Part shown: in pieces, positions 1-35,533 of the stretch
Layout: every line of letters begins with the position of its first letter
How positions within the stretch are numbered: the stretch's first letter is position 1
Source of the DNA: a virus
Length of the DNA stretch: 35,533 bases
Reading direction: 5' to 3' (one strand)
IMG/VR virus record: IMGVR_UViG_3300012831_000003
Program-made: the position numbers and the translations under genes
Notes under the pieces: model-generated
The model's database searches: none
What the model was told of the DNA's origin: nothing
The model's input: only the letters and a program-made list of their open reading frames with translations

Positions 1-123
1 GTCACCCTAGATCATGCTGGGTACAATTCGAGGAAGTGACGCAAACCACTTAAAACAAGGCGTTTTTTCACAAAACAGCTTGTTTTAAAGGGTCTGAAAA
101 TCCGTGTACTGTTTCCTGTGGAA
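1..123. repeat. Terminal direct repeat, copy 1 (identical to 35411..35533)
   Basis: Base-for-base identity read directly: gtcaccctagatcatgctgg...gtttcctgtggaa at both window ends. Confidence 0.98.
50..88. repeat. 10-bp inverted repeat TTAAAACAAG (50-59) / CTTGTTTTAA (79-88) inside the terminal repeat
   Basis: Read directly. The spacer itself holds GTTTT..AAAAC symmetry, in an AT-rich stretch of a GC-rich genome. Confidence 0.8.
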
Positions 124-160
124 ATCGCAGAAACTTGGCATGTAAGTGCTTGATTTCGTT

Positions 161-234
161 ATGGGTACAGTCAGGTTCGCGTCGCTTGGGTCTACTATGG
201 GTTCAATAGCGCGCGGTGAACCCAACTGAACCCA
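161..234. promoter_or_regulatory. TGGGTWCA motif array, candidate recombinase arm-type sites (downstream side of att gap)
   Basis: TGGGTACA at 162-169 and TGGGTTCA at 198-205 (forward). TGAACCCA, the reverse complement, at 217-224 and 227-234, 10 bp apart. A further TGGGTACA at 18-25 lies inside the repeat. Confidence 0.6.
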
Positions 235-248
235 GCGCCTGTACTGCC

Positions 249-274
249 AAAAGAAAAGGCGCCACGTGGGCGCC
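249..274 (-). terminator. Rho-independent terminator closing the cargo operon
   Basis: GGCGCC (258-263) pairs with GGCGCC (269-274) around a 5-nt loop, followed on the minus strand by TTTTCTTTT. It begins right after the TAG stop at 275-277. Confidence 0.7.
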
Positions 275-565
275 CTACTGCGTTTCCGGTGGTTCGCGCC
301 CGGCCCTTATCTGCTCCTGCTCGGCGCCCATGGCGCGATCAGCGGCGCGCGCGCCCTCCCTCCATCCCATCACCCCGGATGCCACGATGACGGCCGGCAC
401 GCTGGCCCACACTGCCACCCCGAGGTGCTGGGCAATCACACTGGCGACGTACCCCAGGGCGGCGGCCACACCGGCGGTCACCACGGTGACGCGCATAAAC
501 AGCCACCGATAGCTGTAGATCATGCGCAAAGCGAACGCCAAGCCATGCCGGATGTCGTAACTCAT
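275..565 (-). CDS. Small membrane protein, two predicted TM helices
   Basis: The ATG at 565 overlaps the upstream stop (ATGA). Hydrophobic runs VTVVTAGVAAALGYVASVIA and VWASVPAVIVASGVMGW. Third-codon positions are mostly G/C. Confidence 0.7.
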   Translation of the reverse strand: MSYDIRHGLAFALRMIYSYRWLFMRVTVVTAGVAAALGYVASVIAQHLGVAVWASVPAVIVASGVMGWREGARAADRAMGAEQEQIRAGREPPETQ

Positions 566-825
566 AGCCCCATCGCCGCCTGTAGCTCTTCCCTGGCGCG
601 CTTGTGCGCCGTGCGCGTCAGCCGGCGGCAGGCTTCCCACCGCTCGGCCAACAGCTCTTCCATGGCCACCCACACGGCCGGCGGGATGCTGCGCTCACCG
701 TTCACCCACTCGCGAACCCGGCGATCACCTACCCCCAGCGCGCGCGCCAGATCGGATTGCCAGCGGGTGCCATACAGGGTTTGCCCCATGTCGGCCAAGA
801 TTTCGCGGTCGGCGTCGGTGGTCAT
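562..825 (-). CDS. XRE/Cro-type helix-turn-helix protein (Aca-like or antitoxin-like position)
   Basis: 87 aa. WQSDLARALGVGDRRVREWVNGERSIP reads as a helix-turn-helix. Translationally coupled to the downstream membrane ORF. Confidence 0.7.
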   Translation of the reverse strand: MTTDADREILADMGQTLYGTRWQSDLARALGVGDRRVREWVNGERSIPPAVWVAMEELLAERWEACRRLTRTAHKRAREELQAAMGL

Positions 826-834
826 AAGCTCCCT

Positions 835-1344
835 TTAGTGTTTCTTGGCGTCACTGCGGTTGATGGCGTCACGGATCGCACCGGCCAGAACCCGTTTCTT
901 GTCCTCCGGGCTGGCATTCGGCGCAGGCGGCACCATAGCCCGGCCGGCGTCTTTCGCCAAATCCTGCAACTCGCGGATGCGCCGGAACTCTGCCACCTGG
1001 ATGGCCGTTTGCTCTTCCCGGCTCATCGGTTGGCCTGCCGCCTCGCGCTTTTCCGCAACGTGGTGGACAAGCTGGAGCGTGCGCAGCATCGCATCGGCGC
1101 ACATCAATACATCTTCACCCACGTTCGGCCCGAACGCCTTTACCAACATGCCGCCCAGGGACTGGCCGAACGATTGATAGAACACATAACCGGTATCGGC
1201 GAAGTCCGGGCGCTCTAGCTCGGCCTTGATAGCCGGCAGGATGAGCGCGGCCGCTTCATAGGCGCGCTCGGCGGCGGCGGCTTCGGCCGCTTCCAAGTTA
1301 CCCAAGCCGTCCTTGCGAAAGGCCATTTCTGCTTTCAAGGTCAT
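835..1344 (-). CDS. Hypothetical helical protein, tandem paralogue A
   Basis: ATG at 1344 with GAAGG 8 nt upstream (a TTG at 1359 is an alternative start). Shares RPDFxDT..F.QSF.Q.L.G.LV..FGP...DAM.R..Q and EPM..EEQ blocks and a C-terminal KH with 1356..1868. Confidence 0.75.
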   Translation of the reverse strand: MTLKAEMAFRKDGLGNLEAAEAAAAERAYEAAALILPAIKAELERPDFADTGYVFYQSFGQSLGGMLVKAFGPNVGEDVLMCADAMLRTLQLVHHVAEKREAAGQPMSREEQTAIQVAEFRRIRELQDLAKDAGRAMVPPAPNASPEDKKRVLAGAIRDAINRSDAKKH

Positions 1345-1355
1345 GGCGTGTGCCT

Positions 1356-1868
1356 TCAATGTTTGGTGGGGCCGTCGTCGATTTCCTTTACAGAATCGCA
1401 GAACTCGCCAAGCGTTTGGCTTACTTCTTCGGGCGAAGCGCCATCATCCAACTGTTCGCGAATCGCGGCGCTTGCTTTTGCAATGGTCGCATGCAAAGTC
1501 ATCGCTTTTCGGAAAAAGTCCGCTTGCATCGCGCCCTGCTCTTCGGGTGTCATTGGTTCGCCCGCTTCGCTTGCCTCTTTGGCCGCCACAAAGGTGGCTT
1601 GAATGGCGCGCGTCATTGCGTCCAGCACCATGACCACCTCAACCGCACCATACGGGCCGAACCCGCGTACAAGGCCGCCGGCCAATGCCTGTGCGAAAGA
1701 CTGGCCAAACACCACGGCGGTGTCGGGGAAATCCGGACGATCCCTTTCCTTTTCCAGCCCGTCCACCATCGCGGACACAATGGCAAAACTACGGTCAACC
1801 GCCGCGCGTTCGGCCGGGTCGGGGTTGTCGTTATATCTGGCGCTGAATTTAACTTCGGGCTTCATCAT
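1356..1868 (-). CDS. Hypothetical helical protein, tandem paralogue B
   Basis: ATGATG start overlaps the TAA of the upstream gene (TAATG). Clear similarity to 835..1344 along most of its length. Confidence 0.75.
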   Translation of the reverse strand: MMKPEVKFSARYNDNPDPAERAAVDRSFAIVSAMVDGLEKERDRPDFPDTAVVFGQSFAQALAGGLVRGFGPYGAVEVVMVLDAMTRAIQATFVAAKEASEAGEPMTPEEQGAMQADFFRKAMTLHATIAKASAAIREQLDDGASPEEVSQTLGEFCDSVKEIDDGPTKH

Positions 1869-2383
1869 TACGGGTTCCCCATCGCTACAGGTTGACCGGC
1901 ACCGGCCGGCAGGCGGCTTGCCCATTTCTTCATCTGCTTGCCTTTCAGCTTCACCGCAGGCCCGATGCTCGCGCCATCGGTCGCGGCCACATAGGTGCGG
2001 TCGGCACCTGCCAAGCGGTCAATGATCGCGCGATCCAATTTCACAAAAACCGTGGTGGTGGGCATACACGCCCCCACCAGGACGGTGCCCCAAAAACAGT
2101 TGGACGCGGAACTGCCCGCATACACCGGCAGACGGAACGGCGCTTGCCCTTCAATCCGGAAGCTCACTTCGGTGGCGCTGATTTTGCCGGCGTCGGCATC
2201 GGATAGCAGCACCAGCACCGGCTGCCCATCGATGGTGGCAAAGCGCAAATTAGCCTGCCATCCCATTTCGGCGCCGCTGTACAGGCACACGGTTTGGCCG
2301 GTCGCCTTGTTGATGTTGCAGGCGGTTGCGGTGAAGGCCGCGCCCAGGGCGAGCGCAGCAACGATGATGCGAATAGCTTTCAT
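1868..2383 (-). CDS. Secreted protein, candidate lipoprotein
   Basis: N-terminus MKAIRIIVAALALGAAFTATAC: a basic residue, a hydrophobic core, then a Cys at position 22. The lipobox is non-canonical (ATAC). Confidence 0.7.
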   Translation of the reverse strand: MKAIRIIVAALALGAAFTATACNINKATGQTVCLYSGAEMGWQANLRFATIDGQPVLVLLSDADAGKISATEVSFRIEGQAPFRLPVYAGSSASNCFWGTVLVGACMPTTTVFVKLDRAIIDRLAGADRTYVAATDGASIGPAVKLKGKQMKKWASRLPAGAGQPVAMGNP

Positions 2384-2405
2384 GGCGTGTCGGTTCTCTC
2401 AAAGC

Positions 2406-2427
2406 AAAAGGCGCCCTTGTGGGCGCC
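2406..2427 (-). terminator. Rho-independent terminator after the moron gene
   Basis: GGCGCCC (2410-2416) pairs with GGGCGCC (2421-2427) around loop TTGT. The minus strand continues TTTTGCTTT. Confidence 0.65.
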
Positions 2428-2434
2428 GGGTGGG

Positions 2435-2797
2435 TTACTTGCCTTCTAGCGATGCCAGCACGCGCACCGCGTCGTCGCGTTCCGTCTGCCACCACGTCAA
2501 CCGGTCAACCACAGACATGGTTTCGCCGTTGGCGTCGGGCCAGTGGTGGGCCACCAGCCTATCGGCATCTTCGCGGGTGTACAGACTCGGCATGCGATTG
2601 GGATACGGGCCAAGGGCCATCACCGGGTTGCCGGTGTCCGGATCGGTCATATGGAATACCCCGCGACAGTTCCACAGGCTGGAAACCACGGCCCAGTTGT
2701 GGGAAACGAGCGCATTTGATTTCAGGTACATGTCGCAGGTTTCGATGCGCTCTTGGGCGCTTTGGCGAACTTCGGCGATAGCGGCGGCGGTATTCAT
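2435..2797 (-). CDS. Hypothetical cytoplasmic protein (single-gene moron), 120 aa
   Basis: ATG at 2797 (MNTAAAIAEV...). High GC3 and no TM segment. Flanked by its own promoter and by terminators on both sides. Confidence 0.7.
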   Translation of the reverse strand: MNTAAAIAEVRQSAQERIETCDMYLKSNALVSHNWAVVSSLWNCRGVFHMTDPDTGNPVMALGPYPNRMPSLYTREDADRLVAHHWPDANGETMSVVDRLTWWQTERDDAVRVLASLEGK

Positions 2798-2825
2798 TTT
2801 GGCGTGTTCCGGTGGGTGTAACGAC

Positions 2826-2854
2826 ATCTTACATGCGCCTAATTCTAGGCGCAA
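2826..2854 (-). promoter_or_regulatory. Sigma-70-type promoter with embedded palindromic operator
   Basis: The minus strand reads TTGCGC-N17-TAAGAT. The spacer carries GCGCCT-AGAATT-AGGCGC (2835-2852). Architecture matches 6671-6699. Confidence 0.65.
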
Positions 2855-2866
2855 CTTACGGGGCAC

Positions 2867-2900
2867 AAAAAAGGCCGGCGCATTCAGGCACCGGCCTTTT
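2867..2900. terminator. Bidirectional rho-independent terminator
   Basis: AAAAAA-GGCCGG (2873-2878)...CCGGCC (2891-2896)-TTTT. On the minus strand the stem is followed by TTTTTTG. Confidence 0.7.
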
Positions 2901-2919
2901 ATAGCGAACTTACCCCATC

Positions 2920-3075
2920 TTATCGCTGGCGTGGGGTCTCGTTCGGGCCGGCTTCGTCGTCGTCATCATCCGTCTGACCCGGTACGCGGTTCGGATCATG
3001 GCCCGGCTCACCCGGCTGCGGATTCTTCGGCGCGTTGGGGTTGGTGGTGTTCGGGTTCGGGTTCGGCGTGGACAT
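2920..3075 (-). CDS. Small Pro/Asn-rich acidic protein, 51 aa
   Basis: MSTPNPNPNTTNPNAPKNPQPGEPGHDPNRVPGQTDDDDDEAGPNETPRQR. About 90% G/C at third positions in this frame. GGGAG lies 9 nt upstream of the ATG. Confidence 0.6.
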   Translation of the reverse strand: MSTPNPNPNTTNPNAPKNPQPGEPGHDPNRVPGQTDDDDDEAGPNETPRQR

Positions 3076-3334
3076 GTTGCGTAACTCCCAGCTCCGGCCA
3101 CATGGCCGCATTGGCCACGATGGCATGCGATGCGTTTTCAGTTGATGACACCGGCGCCGCGACGATGTGAAAGTCGCCCGCCGGCATGGCCAACAGTTCG
3201 GCCGCGTGTTCCATCGCGCAGGCCGCATCTTCCATTTCCCGAAGCAACCACACTGGGAAGCGCGTGCGCATCTGCGCGGTATCGCGCATCACGCCCGCAC
3301 GGCGGCGTAGCTCTGAGATGAACTTGTCAGCCAC
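3008..3334 (-). CDS. Hypothetical protein (start uncertain)
   Basis: Candidate GTG at 3334 overlaps the upstream stop. Good GC3 down to about 3085, then a weaker-coding 3' tail overlaps 2920..3075 in another frame. Confidence 0.5.
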   Translation of the reverse strand: MADKFISELRRRAGVMRDTAQMRTRFPVWLLREMEDAACAMEHAAELLAMPAGDFHIVAAPVSSTENASHAIVANAAMWPELGVTQHVHAEPEPEHHQPQRAEESAAG

Positions 3335-3977
3335 GCCGGTGGCCAATGAAAATGGCGGCGAAGTCTTCGCCCCCTTGGGCGCGCGAGTAGACCGGGACGG
3401 GGATGCGTTTGTGTTCATAGCGCAGCAACGGATGATGTTGGTGGGTGCGCATGTTGCCTATAAAAATCAGCTCACGGCATTGCGTCAGCAGTTGCACGTG
3501 GTCGGGGCCATGTTCGTTGCCGCCGCGCTCGTGCTGGCGCGGGTCATAACGGTGCGTCATCCATGCGGTGATGATGATGTCGGGCTTACGTTCCCGGGCC
3601 ACCGCATTGGCGTCGCCCTCGCGCACGTGCTTGCCATACTTGATCGTCGGTTGCCCCATCGCCGCATATTTGTTGGCGATGCTCTTCCACGATTGCATCA
3701 TGTTGTCATAACCAGGGATGCCCAGCGCTTCGCACAGCAGGCCGCGCCCGGCACATAGTTCTATAGCGTCCTGGCCTTTGCAGTGGTCGAACAACCATTC
3801 GCACAGTTCGCGGGTCGGCAGGTGATACAGGCCATGCACGTGGCCCAACAGCGCGCGCTCGTTGGGTGTCGTGGTTTTCCAATAGGCATCATTGCGCAAG
3901 CGCCATTCTCCGTTGGGATGGAAAACCTGCGAAGTGATGTCGCGGATATGGGCGGGGTCAATCACAGAAAAGGTCAT
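3327..3977 (-). CDS. Possible SAM-dependent methyltransferase-fold protein
   Basis: MTFSVIDP start. DAIELCAGRGLLCEALG resembles Rossmann motif I, with a later acidic GYDN and DIIITAW. No DPPY/NPPY motif is present. Confidence 0.45.
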   Translation of the reverse strand: MTFSVIDPAHIRDITSQVFHPNGEWRLRNDAYWKTTTPNERALLGHVHGLYHLPTRELCEWLFDHCKGQDAIELCAGRGLLCEALGIPGYDNMMQSWKSIANKYAAMGQPTIKYGKHVREGDANAVARERKPDIIITAWMTHRYDPRQHERGGNEHGPDHVQLLTQCRELIFIGNMRTHQHHPLLRYEHKRIPVPVYSRAQGGEDFAAIFIGHRRG

Positions 3978-3994
3978 CGGCGTGTGGTGGTGGT

Positions 3995-4264
3995 CTATTC
4001 GTCTACCGCCATGAATTGCAAGCGGTCGTTTTGATACTTGCGGCGCGGGTTTTCGAGCGCGGCATCGCGGGTTTTCGCACTGCGGTAGTTGCCGCGCCAG
4101 CGGCGCCATTCGCCCCATTCCTCCGGCTCTACGCTTCTCTGCGGGTTGCGCATCCAGACCTGCCACGGAAGACGGCGCGAATAGATCGAAAAGTTCGTGG
4201 CCTTGCGCGCGTGGCCCGGCGTTGGGCGGGTGTCGTCAACTTGCGGGTTGTTGTTTTGCTGCAT
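3995..4264 (-). CDS. Hypothetical Trp/Arg-rich protein
   Basis: ATG at 4264 with GAGGG 8 nt upstream. 89 aa. Confidence 0.6.
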   Translation of the reverse strand: MQQNNNPQVDDTRPTPGHARKATNFSIYSRRLPWQVWMRNPQRSVEPEEWGEWRRWRGNYRSAKTRDAALENPRRKYQNDRLQFMAVDE

Positions 4265-4463
4265 CACGGTAGCCCTCAATCCACTTGTTCACACGGTGGT
4301 GTAACCGGTGATCGTGGGGCCAGCGGTTCACTAGGGAACCATCTGCCAATTGGGCCACGCTCCAGCCGTCATACCACCCGCGAATCTCTATGAACAAAGT
4401 CCCTGGCGGGAAATCGTCGGTGCTATGGATGCGGCCGGGTTTGGTGTCGGTTTCCACGGTCAC
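4236..4463 (-). CDS. Hypothetical protein
   Basis: GTG at 4463 overlaps the upstream TGA (GTGA) and is preceded by AAGGAG. 75 aa. Confidence 0.55.
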   Translation of the reverse strand: MTVETDTKPGRIHSTDDFPPGTLFIEIRGWYDGWSVAQLADGSLVNRWPHDHRLHHRVNKWIEGYRDAAKQQPAS

Positions 4464-4699
4464 ATCTCCTTTTCGCCGTTGATGAAGCGCATCACCTTGC
4501 GGGTTTGACGTTCCAACTTCCACATGGCCAACACGCAATAGACGCCCACGGCCACGTCGAAAATTCCGGCGGCCAGCATCGCCCAGTCGGCCCACGAGAT
4601 TGGCGGCCTGATTGCTTTGTCAATGCATATCGCCGTGCCCACGGCCAGACACACCACCGAAACGGTGTAGGGATTTCGCATCAACCACCGGGTAATCAT
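4460..4699 (-). CDS. Small membrane protein, two TM helices
   Basis: YTVSVVCLAVGTAICI and WAMLAAGIFDVAVGVYCVLAMW. ATGA overlap with the upstream gene. Confidence 0.7.
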   Translation of the reverse strand: MITRWLMRNPYTVSVVCLAVGTAICIDKAIRPPISWADWAMLAAGIFDVAVGVYCVLAMWKLERQTRKVMRFINGEKEM

Positions 4700-5064
4700 T
4701 CCTTGCCCTCGCGTTTGGTCGCTTCATCGGCTGCGACCATCTTCACCAATGCCGCGTGGCGCTTGATCGCCACGTCGAAGCTGCTATGCCGCTCCACCCA
4801 TTCGGTGCCGAACTTGCCAGACACGGCCACTTCAAAAAAGGTATTCCCCGCCATCCGCATGGGCAGAAAAAGCGTAATTACATCCCGGTTGCCAATGACA
4901 TGGCGGCGCAACACTTCCGGTTTGAACTCGCGTACATCGTCGGCCGGCTCCACGTTGTGCTGCGGTGTCAGTCGATACACACCCGTGGCCGACACATGCA
5001 CACCGCCGGGCGGCTCGGGTTCGGCCGACACATTGCTGCGCCGGTCGTTGAAAGGCGTTATCAC
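4696..5064 (-). CDS. Hypothetical protein
   Basis: 122-aa ORF in the operon frame pattern. No recognisable motif. Confidence 0.6.
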   Translation of the reverse strand: MITPFNDRRSNVSAEPEPPGGVHVSATGVYRLTPQHNVEPADDVREFKPEVLRRHVIGNRDVITLFLPMRMAGNTFFEVAVSGKFGTEWVERHSSFDVAIKRHAALVKMVAADEATKREGKE

Positions 5065-5079
5065 GTTATCCCCCTGCGA

Positions 5080-5565
5080 CTAGGCCGACTGTTTCTTTCG
5101 CCACTCGGCCGCCAGCTCCCGCCGGAACTTGGCATTACTCCATCGTTCGGCCATCAACCGCAGGCCACCATCGCGCACTTGCATGATCGGCATGGCCAAG
5201 GGCGCGGCCAACTCAATCTTAAGGTGTAGCCCACATTGGCTACAGGTCACGATTCCAACAAATGCTTTTCCCGTTTCTTCCCGTCGCACGGTAGTGTCAA
5301 GGCGCACGGGGCCATGGCAATGCGGGCACGGTTGTTGGGTGACCTGATCCTGCGGAGGCGTGGCCAGCCATGTCTGCACGCGGCGGGAGAATATCCACCC
5401 AATCAGCATGCCCAGGATGAGCCCCACCACGGCGCCCACAGTCGGGGTGATGAAACCCAGTAGCTGGAAACCGATCACAGAACCGCAGGCCGCTACCACC
5501 GGCACAAGGAAATGGTGGACGAAACGCGGAGGGCTTTCCGGAACGTTGCTATAGCGCGGCATCAT
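5080..5565 (-). CDS. Membrane-anchored zinc-ribbon protein
   Basis: The ATGATG start overlaps the upstream TGA. Two hydrophobic helices are followed by CPHC-X27-CSQC. Confidence 0.65.
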   Translation of the reverse strand: MMPRYSNVPESPPRFVHHFLVPVVAACGSVIGFQLLGFITPTVGAVVGLILGMLIGWIFSRRVQTWLATPPQDQVTQQPCPHCHGPVRLDTTVRREETGKAFVGIVTCSQCGLHLKIELAAPLAMPIMQVRDGGLRLMAERWSNAKFRRELAAEWRKKQSA

Positions 5566-5762
5566 GGCGTGTCGCCGGTAGGTGTAACCATTCGGGCGGC
5601 CCAGCCTTTGCGGGTGCAGTAAGTGCTCACCCGTTCGCGGCTCCAGCCGTGCATATATTTCAGGATCGGGGCCGCTTCGGTCACCCGGTCGGTTTTGCTG
5701 CACCACACAAGCCCGGCCACGAAATGTGGCGCGGTGATTCTGACAAGCTCAACGTTTCCCAT
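5562..5762 (-). CDS. Hypothetical protein
   Basis: 66-aa ORF coupled to its neighbours. Confidence 0.55.
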   Translation of the reverse strand: MGNVELVRITAPHFVAGLVWCSKTDRVTEAAPILKYMHGWSRERVSTYCTRKGWAARMVTPTGDTP

Positions 5763-6021: not shown

Positions 6022-6218
6022 GGCACGGGCTCTTCTTCGGCATCCGGGTATTTCGTGCGGGTCATCGGCAACAGGTACAGGGCAAGGATCACCCCGACCA
6101 CATGGTCGGCCGGTACGGCAGCCAACTCGGCGATGCGCTCAATCGATCCGGCAAGCTCGGTTGCCACGCGGATGCGCACCTCTGCCTTGGCATCTTTCAT
6201 TGTCATGTCGGCTTCCAT
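6018..6218 (-). CDS. Hypothetical protein (start uncertain: 6218 or 6206)
   Basis: The ATG at 6218 overlaps the Cro-like stop (TGATG). The ATG at 6206 has GGAAG upstream. Confidence 0.5.
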   Translation of the reverse strand: MEADMTMKDAKAEVRIRVATELAGSIERIAELAAVPADHVVGVILALYLLPMTRTKYPDAEEEPVP

Positions 6219-6490
6219 CACGTAAACGGCAAGCGGCGTTGTGGTTTTTGTTGGTGTCGGGAAAGCCACTTTTCGGTGAACTCGCGACGCATGCGCACAT
6301 CTTCGTCAAAGTTGGCCAGCCAATCGGCGAACTCTGCCGGGAACGCCCGCGCCACCATCATGGCGTGGTGCGCCGGTATCGCCTCATCGCGTGCCAGCCG
6401 GTAAATAGATTGCGTCGATACGCCCAAGAATAGTGCCAGTGCTGCGGGCCGTCCCCCAAACGGCGCCGCCGCCTCGTCTCGCGTCATCAT
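6218..6490 (-). CDS. Cro/YdaS-like HTH regulator, first gene of the leftward early operon
   Basis: AALALFLGVSTQSIYRLARDEAIP reads as an HTH. Divergent from the plus-strand regulator gene across a 250-bp gap. Confidence 0.7.
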   Translation of the reverse strand: MMTRDEAAAPFGGRPAALALFLGVSTQSIYRLARDEAIPAHHAMMVARAFPAEFADWLANFDEDVRMRREFTEKWLSRHQQKPQRRLPFT

Positions 6491-6670: not shown

Positions 6671-6699
6671 TTGCGCCTGCGTTTAGGCGCTGTTAGCTT
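6671..6699 (+). promoter_or_regulatory. Sigma-70-type promoter with embedded palindromic operator
   Basis: TTGCGC-N17-TAGCTT. The spacer carries GCGCCT-GCGTTT-AGGCGC (6673-6690). It lies 45 nt upstream of the ATG at 6744. Confidence 0.6.
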
Positions 6700-6743: not shown

Positions 6744-8027
6744 ATGCTTGCAAAGCTCATGGACACCGCCGCGCTGAAACGCGCCTGCGGTTTGGAGACG
6801 GCGGAATATGCCAATGCGGCCACGCTCGGGTTGCTGCCCCGGGCATGCGGTCAGTTCAATGGCGTTCCGGTGTGGTTTGAAACAGACGTGCGCAAATTTG
6901 CTAATGAGGTTGGCAAAACGTTTGACGAAAGCTGGAGTGACATCCACATCACGTTGGCTTCTCAGATCACAAAAAGCGCGCCGGAAGCGCAGCAGGTTGC
7001 GCACGCGGAAGCTGATCGGCAGTGGCCCGAAGAAATGCACCAGGAACTTGCAGCGCAATACATGGGATGTGGCTCACAGGTGTTGCAGAAAGGCGTCAAG
7101 GCCGGTGTGTTGAACTTCCAACGCGATGGCCGGTTGATAGTGTTTCGTAAGGAAGACTTGGACGCCTATCGGGAACTGCCCATCTTCTCTCGGCGCATCA
7201 CGCGAAAGAAGCACAAGAAAGGCGACGCGGTGGTAGTGGCCAAACCTGCCGAACCGCACAACAAGGCCGCCATGGCCAACGCGCAAACCCTGTTGACGGA
7301 AAAAGGCGCGGCCGATTTCTTGGGCATCCACTACGGCGCGTTGGCGCTCTCTCGCAAGTATGGAACCGGCCCGGTGGTAGCAATCGATTCCGCCGGCGTG
7401 CCGCGTTATCGCCTGTGCGATCTACAGGAATTTGCCGAACGTCATTTGAAATCGCATGACCACACCGACACGCGCAGCCGCACCGAAGTGGTCAAATCGG
7501 TTCGGCTTGATGGCACAACGGTAGCGGTCTCCAAAGCCGTGGCGAAGTCCACCGGCGAAGTGGTGCCCGCCCAGGTCAAGCCGGTGGAACCGCAGACCGA
7601 TACCGCCCCCATCTTTCCCAAGCTGGCCAAGCTGGCCGCCGACAAGCTCTTGTCGATGGATGAGGTTGCGCAGTACCTCGGCGTAAAGGGGAAATCCATC
7701 GGCAATTGGCGCATGCGTGACGCCTTCGCCGATGCGGATGCAATGGTGCCAGGGCGCGGCAGTGAGGCGCCGCGTTGGCGGGCCGCTACTGTCCTGCAAT
7801 GGGCAGTGAAGAATGCGCACCGCATTGAACGGTCGAAGGCACAGATTGCGCATGGCCACAATGGCCCCGACGGCAAGGTAAAGAATGCCCACATCGGCAA
7901 TGGTGTGAAGAATGGCACCCGCCGCCCAGGCGCCAAAAAGGTGTTGAAAGCCACCAGCGCGCGGCGCCAGCCCACGCGCGTTGCCAACAGCCGCGCCACG
8001 CTTGGCGGCGCCCGCGTTCGCCATTAG
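6744..8027 (+). CDS. Multi-HTH DNA-binding protein (four excisionase/MerR-type HTH repeats); candidate prophage repressor
   Basis: ATG at 6744 with GGGG 7 nt upstream. There are four repeats of the pattern aliphatic-x-x-x-E/A-A-A-x-Y/F-L-G...W/F/Y: MDTAALKRACG.., ELAAQYMGCG.., GAADFLGIHY.., MDEVAQYLGV... The tail is basic. No S24 peptidase motif. Confidence 0.75.
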   Translation: MLAKLMDTAALKRACGLETAEYANAATLGLLPRACGQFNGVPVWFETDVRKFANEVGKTFDESWSDIHITLASQITKSAPEAQQVAHAEADRQWPEEMHQELAAQYMGCGSQVLQKGVKAGVLNFQRDGRLIVFRKEDLDAYRELPIFSRRITRKKHKKGDAVVVAKPAEPHNKAAMANAQTLLTEKGAADFLGIHYGALALSRKYGTGPVVAIDSAGVPRYRLCDLQEFAERHLKSHDHTDTRSRTEVVKSVRLDGTTVAVSKAVAKSTGEVVPAQVKPVEPQTDTAPIFPKLAKLAADKLLSMDEVAQYLGVKGKSIGNWRMRDAFADADAMVPGRGSEAPRWRAATVLQWAVKNAHRIERSKAQIAHGHNGPDGKVKNAHIGNGVKNGTRRPGAKKVLKATSARRQPTRVANSRATLGGARVRH

Positions 8028-24828: not shown

Positions 24829-25056
24829 TTACACCTTGCGGGTGTGTTTGGCATGTACCCGTTGCAGCGCGGCGACAGTTCGATATTCAGGGCATCGCCC
24901 ACGCTCGCCGGTGGCCAACAGCGTGATGGTGGTTCGCGACAAGCCGGTCTCGCGCGCAATCTGCGAACGGCGCAGCGGCACCGCCTCAAGTGAGGCGATC
25001 AACGCGGACACATCAAGGGGCACGTAATGGCGCGGCATGGGCGCATTTTCTGTCAT
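24829..25056 (-). CDS. Small HTH DNA-binding protein inside the head module
   Basis: ATG at 25056. RRSQIARETGLSRTTITLLATGER reads as an HTH. High GC3. Confidence 0.6.
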   Translation of the reverse strand: MTENAPMPRHYVPLDVSALIASLEAVPLRRSQIARETGLSRTTITLLATGERGRCPEYRTVAALQRVHAKHTRKV

Positions 25057-27864: not shown

Positions 27865-28542
27865 CTACCCCTGCGTTACTCCACGCACGCGACCATGCGC
27901 AGGTGTGTAGCCCGATGGTGCGGGGGCTGGCCCCATCCATCGGCGCAAGGCGTCGTTACTTCCATTGAACCGATCACCATCCACCGGGCCAGTGATACCC
28001 GGCACGGTTGCGCTATCGGTGTACTGCCACAGCGTCCACACAGGCCATGTGGCCTTGGGCCAGCTCGGGGCGCTGGCCGTGGTGTACTGGGCCACCCACA
28101 GTGCGGTGGCTTCCAAGGATTCATCCACGGCACCGGATGGAACCTGATCCTTAATCAGATGTCCCGAATAGATGGCCACTTGCAGGTTGCGTGGGTCGGC
28201 GGCGAGATAGGCCACGGCCGCGCGCAAATCATCTATGGACGGGTCGGGGTGACCACTCAACGGCTCGTGGTCAATGCAGACGCGCTCGCCATACACAGGT
28301 TGCACGGTGTCGAGATAGTGCGCCATTTGTGCCGACACATTGCCGGCCTCAAGGAAATGGTAGGACGCGAACAGCAGTCCCGCTTTCTCTGCCGCTGCAC
28401 GACGTGCGGCAAACTTGGGATCAACGTATGACGTGCCCTGTGTAGCCTTGTGGAAGATGCCCACCACGCCAGCCGATGCGACCTTGGCAAAGTCCGGGTC
28501 GCTGTTGTGGTGGGACAGATCAATTACCGATGGGACGGTCAT
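27865..28542 (-). CDS. Endolysin, glycoside hydrolase family 25 muramidase
   Basis: VIDLSHHNSDPDFAKV..GIFHKATQGTSYVDPKF...WQYT...GPVDGDRFNGS. ATG at 28542 with GAGG 5 nt upstream. Confidence 0.85.
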   Translation of the reverse strand: MTVPSVIDLSHHNSDPDFAKVASAGVVGIFHKATQGTSYVDPKFAARRAAAEKAGLLFASYHFLEAGNVSAQMAHYLDTVQPVYGERVCIDHEPLSGHPDPSIDDLRAAVAYLAADPRNLQVAIYSGHLIKDQVPSGAVDESLEATALWVAQYTTASAPSWPKATWPVWTLWQYTDSATVPGITGPVDGDRFNGSNDALRRWMGPAPAPSGYTPAHGRVRGVTQG

Positions 28543-29909: not shown

Positions 29910-30223
29910 AGCTTCACCCTCCAGCGCGCGCGCCACTGGGCCACCAACACCAATGCTTCGTCCGGGCCATGGCACAACCAAACCGGTGAACCGCGCCAGT
30001 CGCGGGCAAATGCGGATTGATCGCGGTTCAAGCCCGAACGCCCATAGGCCGTGTCGCGGTTCTTTACTTCCACAAGATGGGATTCACCCAGGACGCCCAC
30101 CAGCATGTCGGGGAAGCCCGGCACGCCTGCCAATGCCATATCCGCGACGCTGCACCCGGCACCCTCAAAGGTGGATCGCACAGCGTCGTGGTTGCGGTCG
30201 CGGCTGCCCCGGTAGCGATTCAT
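29906..30223 (-). CDS. VRR-NUC domain nuclease
   Basis: PDMLVGVLGESHLVEVK is a PD-(D/E)xK motif in a ~100-aa protein. Confidence 0.75.
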   Translation of the reverse strand: MNRYRGSRDRNHDAVRSTFEGAGCSVADMALAGVPGFPDMLVGVLGESHLVEVKNRDTAYGRSGLNRDQSAFARDWRGSPVWLCHGPDEALVLVAQWRARWRVKL

Positions 30224-30549
30224 GGATCGTCATCCCCAGGCGCAGGCTTGTCTGGCATGGTGGAATCGAGAAAGCCGGGCTCGGTCGGCATCCTGCCGAA
30301 ATAGAACTTGACCACGTAGTCTAGTTTTGCGGACAGGTAGCCCAGCGCCACGCCAAGGAATCCGGCCACGGCCGCATCGTTCACCACAAGCGTGCCCAGG
30401 ATTTCCAGGGTTGCCAGTGACAGGAACCCAATCATCATCACCAGCGCCAGCACGTGGCGGACAAAGGCGCGTTGCAGATACAGCCATTCCACCGTAGTGG
30501 TTCGGTTGATCCATTGGCGCAACACGCCCATGTGCCGTTCTTCGCTCAT
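30220..30549 (-). CDS. Membrane protein, two TM helices
   Basis: VLALVMMIGFLSLATLEILGTLVV and AVAGFLGVALGYL. Confidence 0.65.
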   Translation of the reverse strand: MSEERHMGVLRQWINRTTTVEWLYLQRAFVRHVLALVMMIGFLSLATLEILGTLVVNDAAVAGFLGVALGYLSAKLDYVVKFYFGRMPTEPGFLDSTMPDKPAPGDDDP

Positions 30550-33834: not shown

Positions 33835-35280
33835 CTATTTCTTGCGCGCCAGTCCTGCCCGCTTCACCGCTGCCCGCTTCTTATATTCGCGCTCGCGCTT
33901 GTTGCGGAAGAGCCGGGCATCAACCATGCGCGAATCCGCCATGTCGTTGACCTCCTTCATTTCAGCGCGCGTGACCGGGCGCGTCAGGAACTCATCCACC
34001 GCCGCCGATGCCGGGCGCGCTTCCTTGCATAGCTCATCCAGGGGATGCACCAACAGGTAATGGCGGTCATTCACATCCTTGGGCGAGTGGGCCATCAGGA
34101 TGAGACATTGGATATGGCCGGCTTTCGTTTTGGCCAGCGCGAAGGAAAACAGCTTGCGGCCGTCGTGCAGGCTGAAATGCTGGGGCAGGACAATTTGCGA
34201 CAGGTCGGTGACGCGGGCCGGTTTGTCAGGGTTGCGCACCGTGCCGAAGACTAGATCGCTCTTGGCGGTGCGCTTGCGGGCTTTGAGGATCGCCAACAGC
34301 GTGGGCGGAATCGGCAGCAGGGCGCCGCGCTTGTTCTTCATCGCTTCCGGCGGCACCGCCATGGTGGCCTTGCGGAAGTCGATCCACGTATAGGACATGA
34401 GTTGGATAGTGCGTTGGCGCAGGCCCATGAAACAGGCCGTCAAAAGCATGGTCAGCTCGGTGGCCATCGCTGGGGCACAGTCGCCCTCTACCTTGTCCAG
34501 CATCCACCGCAGCACGCCGGGGGCAAAGTCGGTGGACAAGCGGGCGCGGCGCGGATCGGGCGGCGTCATCAGCTTGGCCGACACTACCTTTTGCGTCACC
34601 ACCGGCAGGTTGTAGAACCGGCAGATGGCGCCCAGGGCGGCAATAGCGCGCTGCGCACCGGCCACGCTGCCCCGCATGCGCTCGCGGCCGGTACGGTCAT
34701 GCCCTGGCGTCTGCTTACTGCGTGCATGGAAAAGGCGCAACACCAACTCGGGGGTAAGTTGGGCCATCGGCCGGTGGTAATACTCGCCCAGCAGTGGCGG
34801 CACGTTGGCGCGATAGCAAACGCCGGTGTCCTCCGACAACGGGCGGTTGGCCACTCGTTTGGTGATTAGGTATTCCTCCAGCAAGGCCGAGACGGGGCGC
34901 GAACGAACGTCGGCCACGTGTTGGGATTCTCTGACCTCTTGCGTGGTCGGTTGCTCGCCTTTGCGCACCGCCAGCGTGGCCGCAGCGGCCAACTGCCGCG
35001 CCATGTCCGGGGTCAGTTCCCGATGCGTTCCCAGGGCGACACGTCGGCGCGCACCGGTGGCGTTATCCCACACCATGACCGAATAGCTGGCCAGATTTGC
35101 TGACACGCGCACCCGTAGGTTGGGGTTCTCAGCGTCCGCATATTCCTTTCGGCTTCGGGCGGCTTCGGCATCCTTCAACCACTGGCGCACTCGCGCCACG
35201 GTGAAGTTGTCTTTCTTGCTGCTGCGCTCAGTGGCGGCCGGCGCCTTGCGCGCCGGCAGTTGGATCACATTTGATTTCAT
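33835..35280 (-). CDS. int: Tyrosine integrase
   Basis: MKSNVIQLP start at 35280. GLRQRT...WIDF, LHDGRK and MAHSPKDVNDRHYL supply the R...H-x-x-R...H...Y catalytic pattern. Confidence 0.9.
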   Translation of the reverse strand: MKSNVIQLPARKAPAATERSSKKDNFTVARVRQWLKDAEAARSRKEYADAENPNLRVRVSANLASYSVMVWDNATGARRRVALGTHRELTPDMARQLAAAATLAVRKGEQPTTQEVRESQHVADVRSRPVSALLEEYLITKRVANRPLSEDTGVCYRANVPPLLGEYYHRPMAQLTPELVLRLFHARSKQTPGHDRTGRERMRGSVAGAQRAIAALGAICRFYNLPVVTQKVVSAKLMTPPDPRRARLSTDFAPGVLRWMLDKVEGDCAPAMATELTMLLTACFMGLRQRTIQLMSYTWIDFRKATMAVPPEAMKNKRGALLPIPPTLLAILKARKRTAKSDLVFGTVRNPDKPARVTDLSQIVLPQHFSLHDGRKLFSFALAKTKAGHIQCLILMAHSPKDVNDRHYLLVHPLDELCKEARPASAAVDEFLTRPVTRAEMKEVNDMADSRMVDARLFRNKREREYKKRAAVKRAGLARKK

Positions 35281-35355
35281 GGCGTGTTGTCCCGTCTGGC
35301 CGGGGCAACTGCACCCGGCTGGGTTCAATATCGCCCACCAGCGCCGCCCCGCGCA

Positions 35356-35383
35356 ATGGGTACAGTCTGGGTACATGGGTTCA
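35356..35383. promoter_or_regulatory. TGGGTWCA motif triplet (int-proximal side of att gap)
   Basis: TGGGTACA at 35357-35364 and 35368-35375, TGGGTTCA at 35376-35383. The 12-mer ATGGGTACAGTC (35356-35367) recurs at 161-172. Confidence 0.6.
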
Positions 35384-35410
35384 GTCCATAAGCCGATTCA
35401 GGCCATTTCG

Positions 35411-35533
35411 GTCACCCTAGATCATGCTGGGTACAATTCGAGGAAGTGACGCAAACCACTTAAAACAAGGCGTTTTTTCACAAAACAGCTTGTTTTAAAG
35501 GGTCTGAAAATCCGTGTACTGTTTCCTGTGGAA
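35411..35533. repeat. Terminal direct repeat, copy 2 (identical to 1..123)
   Basis: Read directly. Confidence 0.98.

Follow-up and report, generated by a model that had tools for sequence, protein, structure and literature searches.

The virus contig IMGVR_UViG_3300012831_000003 of IMG/VR (35,533 nucleotides, nt; this whole stretch is the window in what follows) carries a block of five small genes, here called A to E, beside a putative phage attachment site (attP) and at the end opposite the integrase gene (int). What is this block, and do its genes belong together? A sequence-only reading had taken it for a five-gene cargo operon, perhaps for superinfection exclusion or defence, with an anti-defence operon or an antitoxin-toxin pair as alternatives. 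The answer that we prefer, with a probability of roughly 0.6, is that the block forms the downstream portion of one self-repressed, mosaic, moron-like accessory cassette next to attP, in which the small helix-turn-helix (HTH) protein D is the autorepressor.

A predicted transcription unit larger than the five genes

All five open reading frames (ORFs) lie on the minus strand where they had been placed: A at 1868-2383 (171 amino acids, aa), B at 1356-1868 (170 aa), C at 835-1344 (169 aa), D at 562-825 (87 aa) and E at 275-565 (96 aa). Each of them shows the GC content by codon position that is expected of coding DNA (0.67/0.52/0.83 for E), and the junctions read from the sequence agree with the earlier description, with TAATG joining A to B, 11 nt between the TGA of B and the ATG of C, a 9-nt gap between C and D, and ATGA joining D to E. 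The features assigned to the products were likewise recovered: A begins with a signal peptide (hydrophobic segment at residues 4-22, with a cysteine at position 22), B is a paralogue of C (BLASTP, E = 3e-24, with 38% identity over 132 aa), D is an HTH protein (26.9 bits to HTH_3, for which the Pfam cut-off is 23), and two transmembrane (TM) segments are predicted in E. Downstream of E, at 276-256 on the minus strand, stands a hairpin with a T-run, and the block is, as proposed, co-oriented, tightly coupled, bounded by a terminator and close to attP opposite int.

Scans with Pfam, PHROGs, NCBIfam and PADLOC found no likeness to virion, lysis, replication or recombination proteins among the products, in agreement with the earlier statement, and returned nothing for A, B, C, E or a 120-aa protein encoded upstream of A. 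The suggestion of defence cargo was not supported: no PADLOC-DB 2.0 model matched any of A to E or the 120-aa protein at E <= 0.1. Profile and structure searches placed D in HTH families and gave weak fold matches for A and none for B.

One part of the earlier description needs revision. The coupling of the five genes stands, whereas the start of the operon at A probably does not: the unit most likely begins about 470 nt further upstream, with a promoter and embedded operator at 2854-2826 and the 120-aa gene at 2435-2797, both on the minus strand. Neither of these, nor a hairpin at 2427-2410, figured in the sequence-only reading.

Three minus-strand hairpins mark this region. The first, an inverted repeat followed by a T-run at 2900-2867 (AAAAGGCCGGTGC...GCGCCGGCCTTTTTT), ends the preceding early genes and is the upstream edge of the cassette. 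The second, at 2427-2410, is a GC hairpin of 7 bp (-16.4 kcal/mol) that is followed by TTTTGCTTTG and lies 27 nt before the start of A; it is more stable than shuffled sequence (z = -3.1), and the gap that separates it from A is too short for a promoter. In a related locus, L005, no hairpin lies between the homologues of the 120-aa gene and of A, and a 73-aa ORF stands in its place. We infer that the hairpin at 2427-2410 is an internal terminator or attenuator that stops transcription in part. The third hairpin, at 276-256, ends the cassette; its stability is unremarkable against shuffles (z = -0.9), and what supports it is its form and position. The hairpin and T-run regions that flank A to E are alike (241-292 and 2393-2433, 71-78% over 23-24 nt; GGCGCCCAC..GGCGCCTTTT), which may be a trace of recombination at the cassette borders or only convergence.

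A palindrome in the promoters of D-family operons

The promoter-like sequence ahead of the 120-aa gene (TTGCGCCTAGAATTAGGCGCATGTAAGAT, minus strand) consists of a -35 hexamer TTGCGC at 2854-2849, a 17-nt spacer and a -10 hexamer TAAGAT at 2831-2826. Its spacer is filled by a perfect palindrome, GCGCCTAGAATTAGGCGC, of the form GCGCCTA-N4-TAGGCGC at 2852-2835. Two such sites with at most one mismatch occur in the window, where 0.005 are expected per shuffled genome. Only one core site is perfect (2838-2849), and the next best, at 6676, lies in the immunity region. The second promoter/operator copy, at 6671-6699 on the plus strand, is made up of TTGCGC, GCGCCTGCGTTTAGGCGC (6673-6690, 1 mismatch) and TAGCTT. 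It stands 45 nt upstream of a gene for a 427-aa protein with an HTH_17 domain in its C-terminal third (6744-8027), the only plus-strand gene, in the divergent region that this gene has in common with a Cro-like 89-aa gene facing it (6218-6487, minus strand). The promoter of the Cro-like gene, TTGACA-N18-TAGAAA, lies about 100 nt from the 6671-6699 site.

Is this palindrome tied to D? The closest profiles to D are phrog_12690 (E = 1.2e-17) and phrog_3626 (E = 3.6e-15), and its score against YdaS_toxin (PF15943), 29.7 bits, falls just under the cut-off of 30. D-like HTH domains also occur in cultured phages of other hosts. Mannheimia phage 535AP2 encodes gp33, whose C-terminal domain is 56% identical to D, and there GCGCCTATAATTAGGCTC overlaps the annotated -10 element of the two-gene operon gp34-gp33. 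A terminator precedes TTGACA-TGTT-CCTAGTATTAGG-CACAAT in Xanthomonas phage OP2, where this sequence heads the operon of ORF61 and ORF62 (L009, 3668-4745). Each of these tandem paralogues joins an N-terminal domain to a D-like HTH, which shows that in the D family even the regulator can be duplicated in tandem.

The association extends to uncultured phages. Among 80 IMG/VR loci collected with a D-family profile from 158 hits, the core CCTA-N4-TAGG was found 43 times, in 40 loci, compared with 6.6 +/- 2.5 times in shuffled sequences. For 34 of these sites the distance to the HTH match downstream is 120-1100 nt, and for one it is greater. The spacer of the core is always A/T-rich and the flanks extend the palindrome. 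Nearly all sites are located between a TTGAC(A/T) -35 element and a -10 element, or themselves hold a TATAAT-like -10 element with a TTGCAA -35 element 16-17 nt upstream. The full 18-nt site of the window type recurs in L012, L013, L016 and L030. Together with the two cultured phages, at least 40 IMG/VR loci thus carry a D-family HTH and the operator.

The variation among these proteins points the same way. D, its homologue in the related locus L004 and Mannheimia gp33 have the recognition helix RRVREW in common, and all three go with GCGCCT(A/C) half-sites; in OP2 the helix is RAVRAW and the operator flank has diverged. By these sequences, the predicted binding specificity follows the recognition helix. 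The window encodes one other candidate binder, the 427-aa protein, for which 50,697 phage records contain no homologue, so that the D-like domain is the only protein that these operons all share. Because the palindrome lies in the promoters of D-like operons both in the window and in other phages, D is most likely the autorepressor of the cassette, acting on the promoter at 2854-2826.

We propose the following scheme. Transcription would start at TTGCGC-N17-TAAGAT (2854-2826), run through the 120-aa gene, pass the hairpin at 2427-2410 by partial read-through into the translationally coupled genes A, B, C, D and E, and stop at the hairpin at 276-256, just before attP. A D dimer would occupy GCGCCTA-N4-TAGGCGC and, because the palindrome fills the promoter spacer, would shut off its own operon. 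The promoter/operator copy with one mismatch means that D may also act on the 427-aa gene. If D does repress the promoter at 2854-2826, then the 120-aa gene and A to E would form one transcription unit with the hairpin at 2427-2410 as a partial stop, and making D from this promoter would require partial read-through of that hairpin. Gene structure, paralogy, the mosaic distribution, and the link of the operator to the D family and to promoter positions are shown by the computation; the role of D as the binding protein, the read-through and the timing of cassette expression are what we infer here.

Literature searches for the operator sequence, and for PF15943 together with anti-CRISPR, returned nothing relevant, and the regulator-operator pair is probably a new element, no description of it having been found in the searchable literature. 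D resembles phrog_3626, phrog_12690, YdaS_toxin and HTH_3, entries that carry neither a function nor a DNA site, so that an operator and an autoregulatory role would be additions to their annotation. Should D bind the palindrome, phrog_3626 and phrog_12690, now labelled as of unknown function, would gain a role and a DNA site, and phage genomes could be searched with the regulator-operator pair for the limits of accessory cassettes and for the fast-evolving cargo in them. The aca genes opened up anti-CRISPR discovery by a comparable route.

Cargo genes of other D-family cassettes matched no Pfam families, and a search of E. coli genomes for the AT-rich D-family cassette gave no match. A conserved element, ATGGGATGGCC(A/G), is located 20-30 nt downstream of the operator in L012, L013, L016, L023, L026, L028, L030 and L031 and is absent from the window. 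If translated, it would read 'MGWP.GPP...EPTM', and it may be a leader peptide or an element of the 5' untranslated region.

Mosaic distribution of the cargo genes

The proposal that the five genes travel together as a coherent system did not hold, as their homologues are scattered across contexts. Relatives of A occur in L004, L005 and L011 without B, C or E, with the limit that L005 ends just after its A homologue, so that the absence of further genes cannot be judged there. The L005 contig opens with the promoter/operator TTGCGCCTAAATTTAGGCGCAGATAGAAT, behind which the homologue of the 120-aa gene, the 73-aa gene and the A homologue follow one another with overlapping stops and starts.

L004, whose large terminase subunit (TerL) is 69% identical to that of the window phage, has a string of genes for a 61-aa protein, a 102-aa protein, an A homologue, a D homologue (50% identical to D) and a DUF3085 protein, headed by TTGCGCCTCAATTGAGGCGCATGTAGGAT and a second copy of the operator. 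The place of insertion is the junction of TerL with a small HTH_31 gene, behind which comes the capsid gene. L011 has an A homologue at the same TerL-capsid junction, without D, and the corresponding junction of the window holds the HTH_31 gene only, A being located near attP instead. The HTH_31-type gene (MTENAPMPRHYVPLDVSALIASLEAVPLRRSQIARETGLSRTTITLLATGERG...) is found at about 24860-25050 on the minus strand of the window, between TerL and the protease-capsid gene; it is kept in L004 and L011, where the A-containing cassette lies just upstream of it. The L004 cassette ends in its DUF3085 gene (2441-2782). In a 2026 study (PMC12826799), DUF3085, a domain of unknown function, was the factor most strongly enriched on broad-host-range conjugative plasmids, where it is found beside RadC.

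Homologues of B and C were found in L006 and L007, with no relative of A, D or E nearby. These two are related phages that have GH25, YfdP and DUF2303 in common. In both (L006, 451-1897; L007, 9371-10483) the B/C homologue comes directly after, or one gene after, a GH25 endolysin gene whose product is 54-60% identical to the GH25 protein of the window (27865-28542). The L006 homologue is followed by a small HTH gene of another family, HTH_17. In L007 an integrase gene (469 aa) lies upstream of the group of GH25 and B/C genes and not after the gap, and a search for attP-like arm repeats in L006 and L007 gave nothing clear.

Judged from these loci, the recurring backbone is the promoter/operator, A and D, in that order, and the B-C pair, E and the 120-aa gene are lineage-specific additions. 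The scatter of the homologues indicates that the cargo is a mosaic of independently acquired genes and not a co-evolved machine of five proteins, which corrects the picture for the window phage.

This distribution, and the layout of the cassette, recall morons. In lambdoid and HK97-like phages, morons are promoter-gene-terminator units between conserved genes, bor and lom of lambda being examples. The window cassette likewise has a promoter-like site of its own and the three hairpins at 2900-2867, 2427-2410 and 276-256, and it occupies module junctions, beside attP in the window and between the TerL and capsid genes in L004 and L011. Presence and absence at a junction is also seen: a cassette with A stands at the junction between TerL and the HTH_31 and major capsid protein (MCP) genes in L004 and L011 and not in the window. 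The window cassette differs from these morons in holding several genes and its own predicted repressor.

The cargo proteins

The first cargo gene encodes a cytoplasmic protein of 120 aa. Its homologue in L005 is 65% identical and belongs to one overlapping gene string with the A homologue.

Protein A has an AXA/lipobox-like site before Cys22 and conserved cysteines at positions 22, 33, 96 and 106. The sites before the cysteine in four A homologues (ATA|C, AGA|C, ASG|C and QAG|C) fit the AXA rule of signal peptidase I at least as well as a lipobox. With its four conserved cysteines and AXA-type sites, A is at least as likely to be a soluble periplasmic protein with two disulfides as a lipoprotein. 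The structure model is a beta-sandwich of modest confidence (pLDDT 67.9), and its best fold matches in the PDB, Bartonella IalB and Burkholderia 3fjv, are not significant (E about 1e-2, TM-scores 0.26-0.44). These periplasmic beta-sandwich proteins are like A in being secreted and about 150 aa long with a beta-sandwich, which in A is predicted, but they have no sequence similarity to it; given this and the non-significant fold match, A cannot be assigned to them. Known members of the A family number four, namely those of the window, P0004, P0005 and L011. A word-index protein search with A returned two relatives, and tblastn against the 50,697 phage records no match. As a spanin, A was rejected: it is too large and structured, and a C-terminal TM segment is absent.

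B is acidic (29 D/E and 17 K/R) and cytoplasmic, and its model has four helices (pLDDT 83.8) with no fold match in the PDB or BFVD. None of its conserved residues looks catalytic. All four members of the B/C family end in Lys-His. The family is extremely small: an exhaustive HMMER search with a B+C profile found 4 clusters among 1.84 billion representative proteins, and the only ones beyond B and C were two distant clusters, P0006 and P0007. A word-index search of 5.8 billion clusters returned only B and C themselves, tblastn of B against the phage records gave no match, and a search for related loci in IMG/VR with the B/C family found nothing. The alignment of the four sequences is too divergent for pattern scans. 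A 108-aa gene upstream of GH25 in L007 was considered as a truncated relative and rejected (hhalign probability 0.3%). A very rare helical family without a fold match and with a conserved Lys-His end merits a structural and functional look.

The TM segments of E span residues 22-40 and 43-61 and are followed by a charged, hydrophilic C-terminal tail. E has no homologues; the word-index search of 5.8e9 clusters returned only E itself, and the search for related IMG/VR loci nothing. Sequence searches of the PDB were uninformative.

What these proteins do is a matter of best guesses. Ours is that the cargo products act on the host and not in phage assembly, with A in the periplasm or envelope and E in the inner membrane as factors of an exclusion or conversion type, and with B, C (acidic, helical and non-enzymatic-looking) and the 120-aa protein as cytoplasmic binders or inhibitors.

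Evidence against the preferred reading, and alternative explanations

Several observations weigh against a cassette that D represses from its own promoter. The promoter is weak, matching the consensus at 3/6 and 4/6 positions, and a generic promoter scan did not find it. Between it and A to E stands a good intrinsic-terminator-like hairpin, so that D may come mainly from read-through of the long Cro-led early operon. Among the D-like loci, 40 of 80 lack the exact CCTA-N4-TAGG core, and 8 core sites lie just downstream of the D-like gene. The shuffles that gave 6.6 expected sites kept mononucleotide content only, and with many near-duplicates among the IMG/VR loci, the independent cases come closer to 30 than to 40. 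Finally, the B/C homologues adjoin a GH25 endolysin gene, which points towards lysis.

One rival is a strict anti-defence operon, in which the 120-aa protein or B and C would inhibit host immunity early in infection and D would be an Aca-type damper of a strong promoter. Aca1 and Aca2 bind inverted repeats in acr promoters and repress them. The window resembles acr-aca operons in that a small HTH gene stands at or near the 3' end of an operon of small, fast-evolving, unannotated phage genes, D coming after the genes for the 120-aa protein, A, B and C; in that a palindromic operator, which D would bind, overlaps the core promoter; and in that the cargo varies between relatives and the regulator and promoter are kept. 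The feedback logic of Aca proteins is, by analogy, the one proposed for D. The rarity of the B/C family, like that of many Acr families, the acidic and helical nature of B without catalytic-looking conserved residues, the small HTH_17 gene that follows the B/C homologue in L006 and the DUF3085 gene in the L004 cassette fit this rival as well. Against it, D is not significantly similar to solved Aca structures: a profile search of the PDB, which is a partial test of the described Aca families, gave only Aca7 at E = 0.93 and 7xi5 at E = 0.03. The window operon is also longer than acr-aca operons and has an internal hairpin, its secreted protein A and membrane protein E are unlike Acr cargo, no anti-defence activity is known for its cargo genes, and the cassette, with two hairpins before it, comes at the end of the early operon and is not immediate-early. 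We regard such an operon as unlikely; the acr-aca-like layout, of the alternatives in the earlier reading the one that the evidence favours, is supported at the level of regulation only, in the palindromic operator in the promoters of D-family operons.

A wider form of the same idea would be that the D family and a CCTA-W4-TAGG promoter-operator mark a widespread, unannotated class of self-repressed cassettes in phages of Proteobacteria, that this pair is an anchor for anti-defence or host-takeover proteins, and that B, C and the 120-aa protein are new immunity inhibitors. We offer this as speculation, and doubtful.

Could the block instead serve superinfection exclusion or lysogenic conversion, with A, possibly together with E, blocking an envelope receptor or DNA entry and the other genes as bystanders? 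The signal peptide, cleavage site and four conserved cysteines of A would suit such a role, and A behaves as a mobile single-gene moron, at the TerL-capsid junction in L004 and L011 and near attP here. With a promoter and terminators of its own, the cassette lies at a prophage end, and its promoter resembles that of the putative repressor gene, which could mean joint expression in lysogens. On the other side, no product is homologous to Cor, Llp, Sie, Imm or any PADLOC model, and A is without sequence or fold likeness to the exclusion lipoproteins Cor and Llp (PHROG, Pfam, tblastn in the 50,697 phage records, fold search), its only fold matches being the weak beta-sandwich ones; nor are the five genes conserved together. 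We consider this explanation improbable.

A role in lysis, with B and C as lysis regulators and E as a class-II-like holin or antiholin displaced from the endolysin gene, is quite unlikely. It draws on the suggestive position of both B/C homologues beside GH25, but L006 and L007 are kin, so that this adjacency is one observation and not two, and in all three phages the B/C gene is merely the last, or near the last, before the gap preceding xis, YfdP and DUF2303. E has the form of a class II holin, being small with two TM segments and a charged C-terminus, but it has neither a homologue nor a match to a holin PHROG, about 7 kb of the circle separates it from the GH25 gene, and the window encodes three other two-TM proteins that would serve as well for a holin. 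A TM segment is missing from B and C, which excludes them as spanins and was the ground for rejecting them as i-spanins. In favour of the lysis reading, the window GH25 protein has no signal or signal-anchor-release (SAR) sequence, and no recognisable holin or spanin gene adjoins its gene, which lies between an HNH gene and a small Sigma70_r4-like gene. Other small two-TM proteins are scattered over the window (30220-30549, 4460-4699 and 5080-5565), and PHROGs assigned neither a holin nor a spanin among its other small TM proteins. With no holin or spanin next to GH25 and the two-TM proteins scattered, the lysis cassette appears dispersed.

Lastly, D and E as an antitoxin-toxin or abortive-infection pair (HTH antitoxin and small membrane toxin), which the sequence-only reading had raised, is very improbable: the ATGA overlap couples the two genes and D weakly matches HigA/HipB-type antitoxin models and YdaS, but the NCBIfam scores are far under their cut-offs, PADLOC gave no match, E is an orphan, the D homologue of L004 is followed by DUF3085, and among 63 distinct D-like genes a TM ORF lies directly downstream in 2 and no coupled downstream ORF is present in 35, unlike the conserved HTH-partner pairs of type II toxin-antitoxin systems.

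The phage genome and the surroundings of the cassette

The window is a circular contig. An exact direct repeat of 123 nt (1-123 and 35411-35533) shows that it is a circularly assembled phage genome of 35,410 bp, and the same genome of about 35.4 kb was recovered in 11 contigs from several samples. Nearly all of its genes are on the minus strand. PHROG scans identified TerL, a protease-capsid fusion, portal, tape measure, a J-like tail protein and a tail fibre; the TerL of Burkholderia, Ralstonia and HK97-like phages has 46% identity to that of the window. The window phage is a temperate HK97-like siphophage of 35.4 kb. Read in the order of transcription, the circle holds int, xis (HTH_17), YfdP, DUF2303 and more early genes; then HNH, the GH25 endolysin, terminase, and head and tail genes; then the single reverse gene (427 aa, HTH_17) facing the Cro-like 89-aa gene; then about eleven small genes, the 120-aa gene and A-B-C-D-E; and, after E, a gap of 405 bp before int.

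This gap, in which the putative attP region spans 1-234 and continues across the circle at 35281-35410, holds nine copies of TGWACCCA in both orientations, where 1.7 are expected for the whole window, and an imperfect inverted repeat of 25 nt at 42-96. The copies are putative integrase arm sites, and by its sequence the gap looks like attP, which makes the placement of the block at the prophage end opposite int a reasonable geometry. A locus search of GTDB genomes with A found nothing, and no integrated copy was found. As a DNA query, positions 1-5000 of the window matched none of the 50,697 phage records, and an Rfam scan of the window found no family.

A small, probably uncalled gene lies at 5565-5747 on the minus strand; this stretch was left without a gene in the gene calls of the contig and matches a 72-aa L007 protein by tblastn (58% identity over 62 aa). 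A decamer, ACACGCCATG, occurs four times on the minus strand (1342-1351, 2381-2390, 5563-5572 and 35278-35287; 0.28 expected), and the ATG within each copy is a start codon, of C, A, a 161-aa two-TM gene and int. Genes in L005 are preceded by leaders that resemble it (GAGAACACGCC-ATG). The decamer may be a common context for translation initiation or a recombination 'boundary' sequence.

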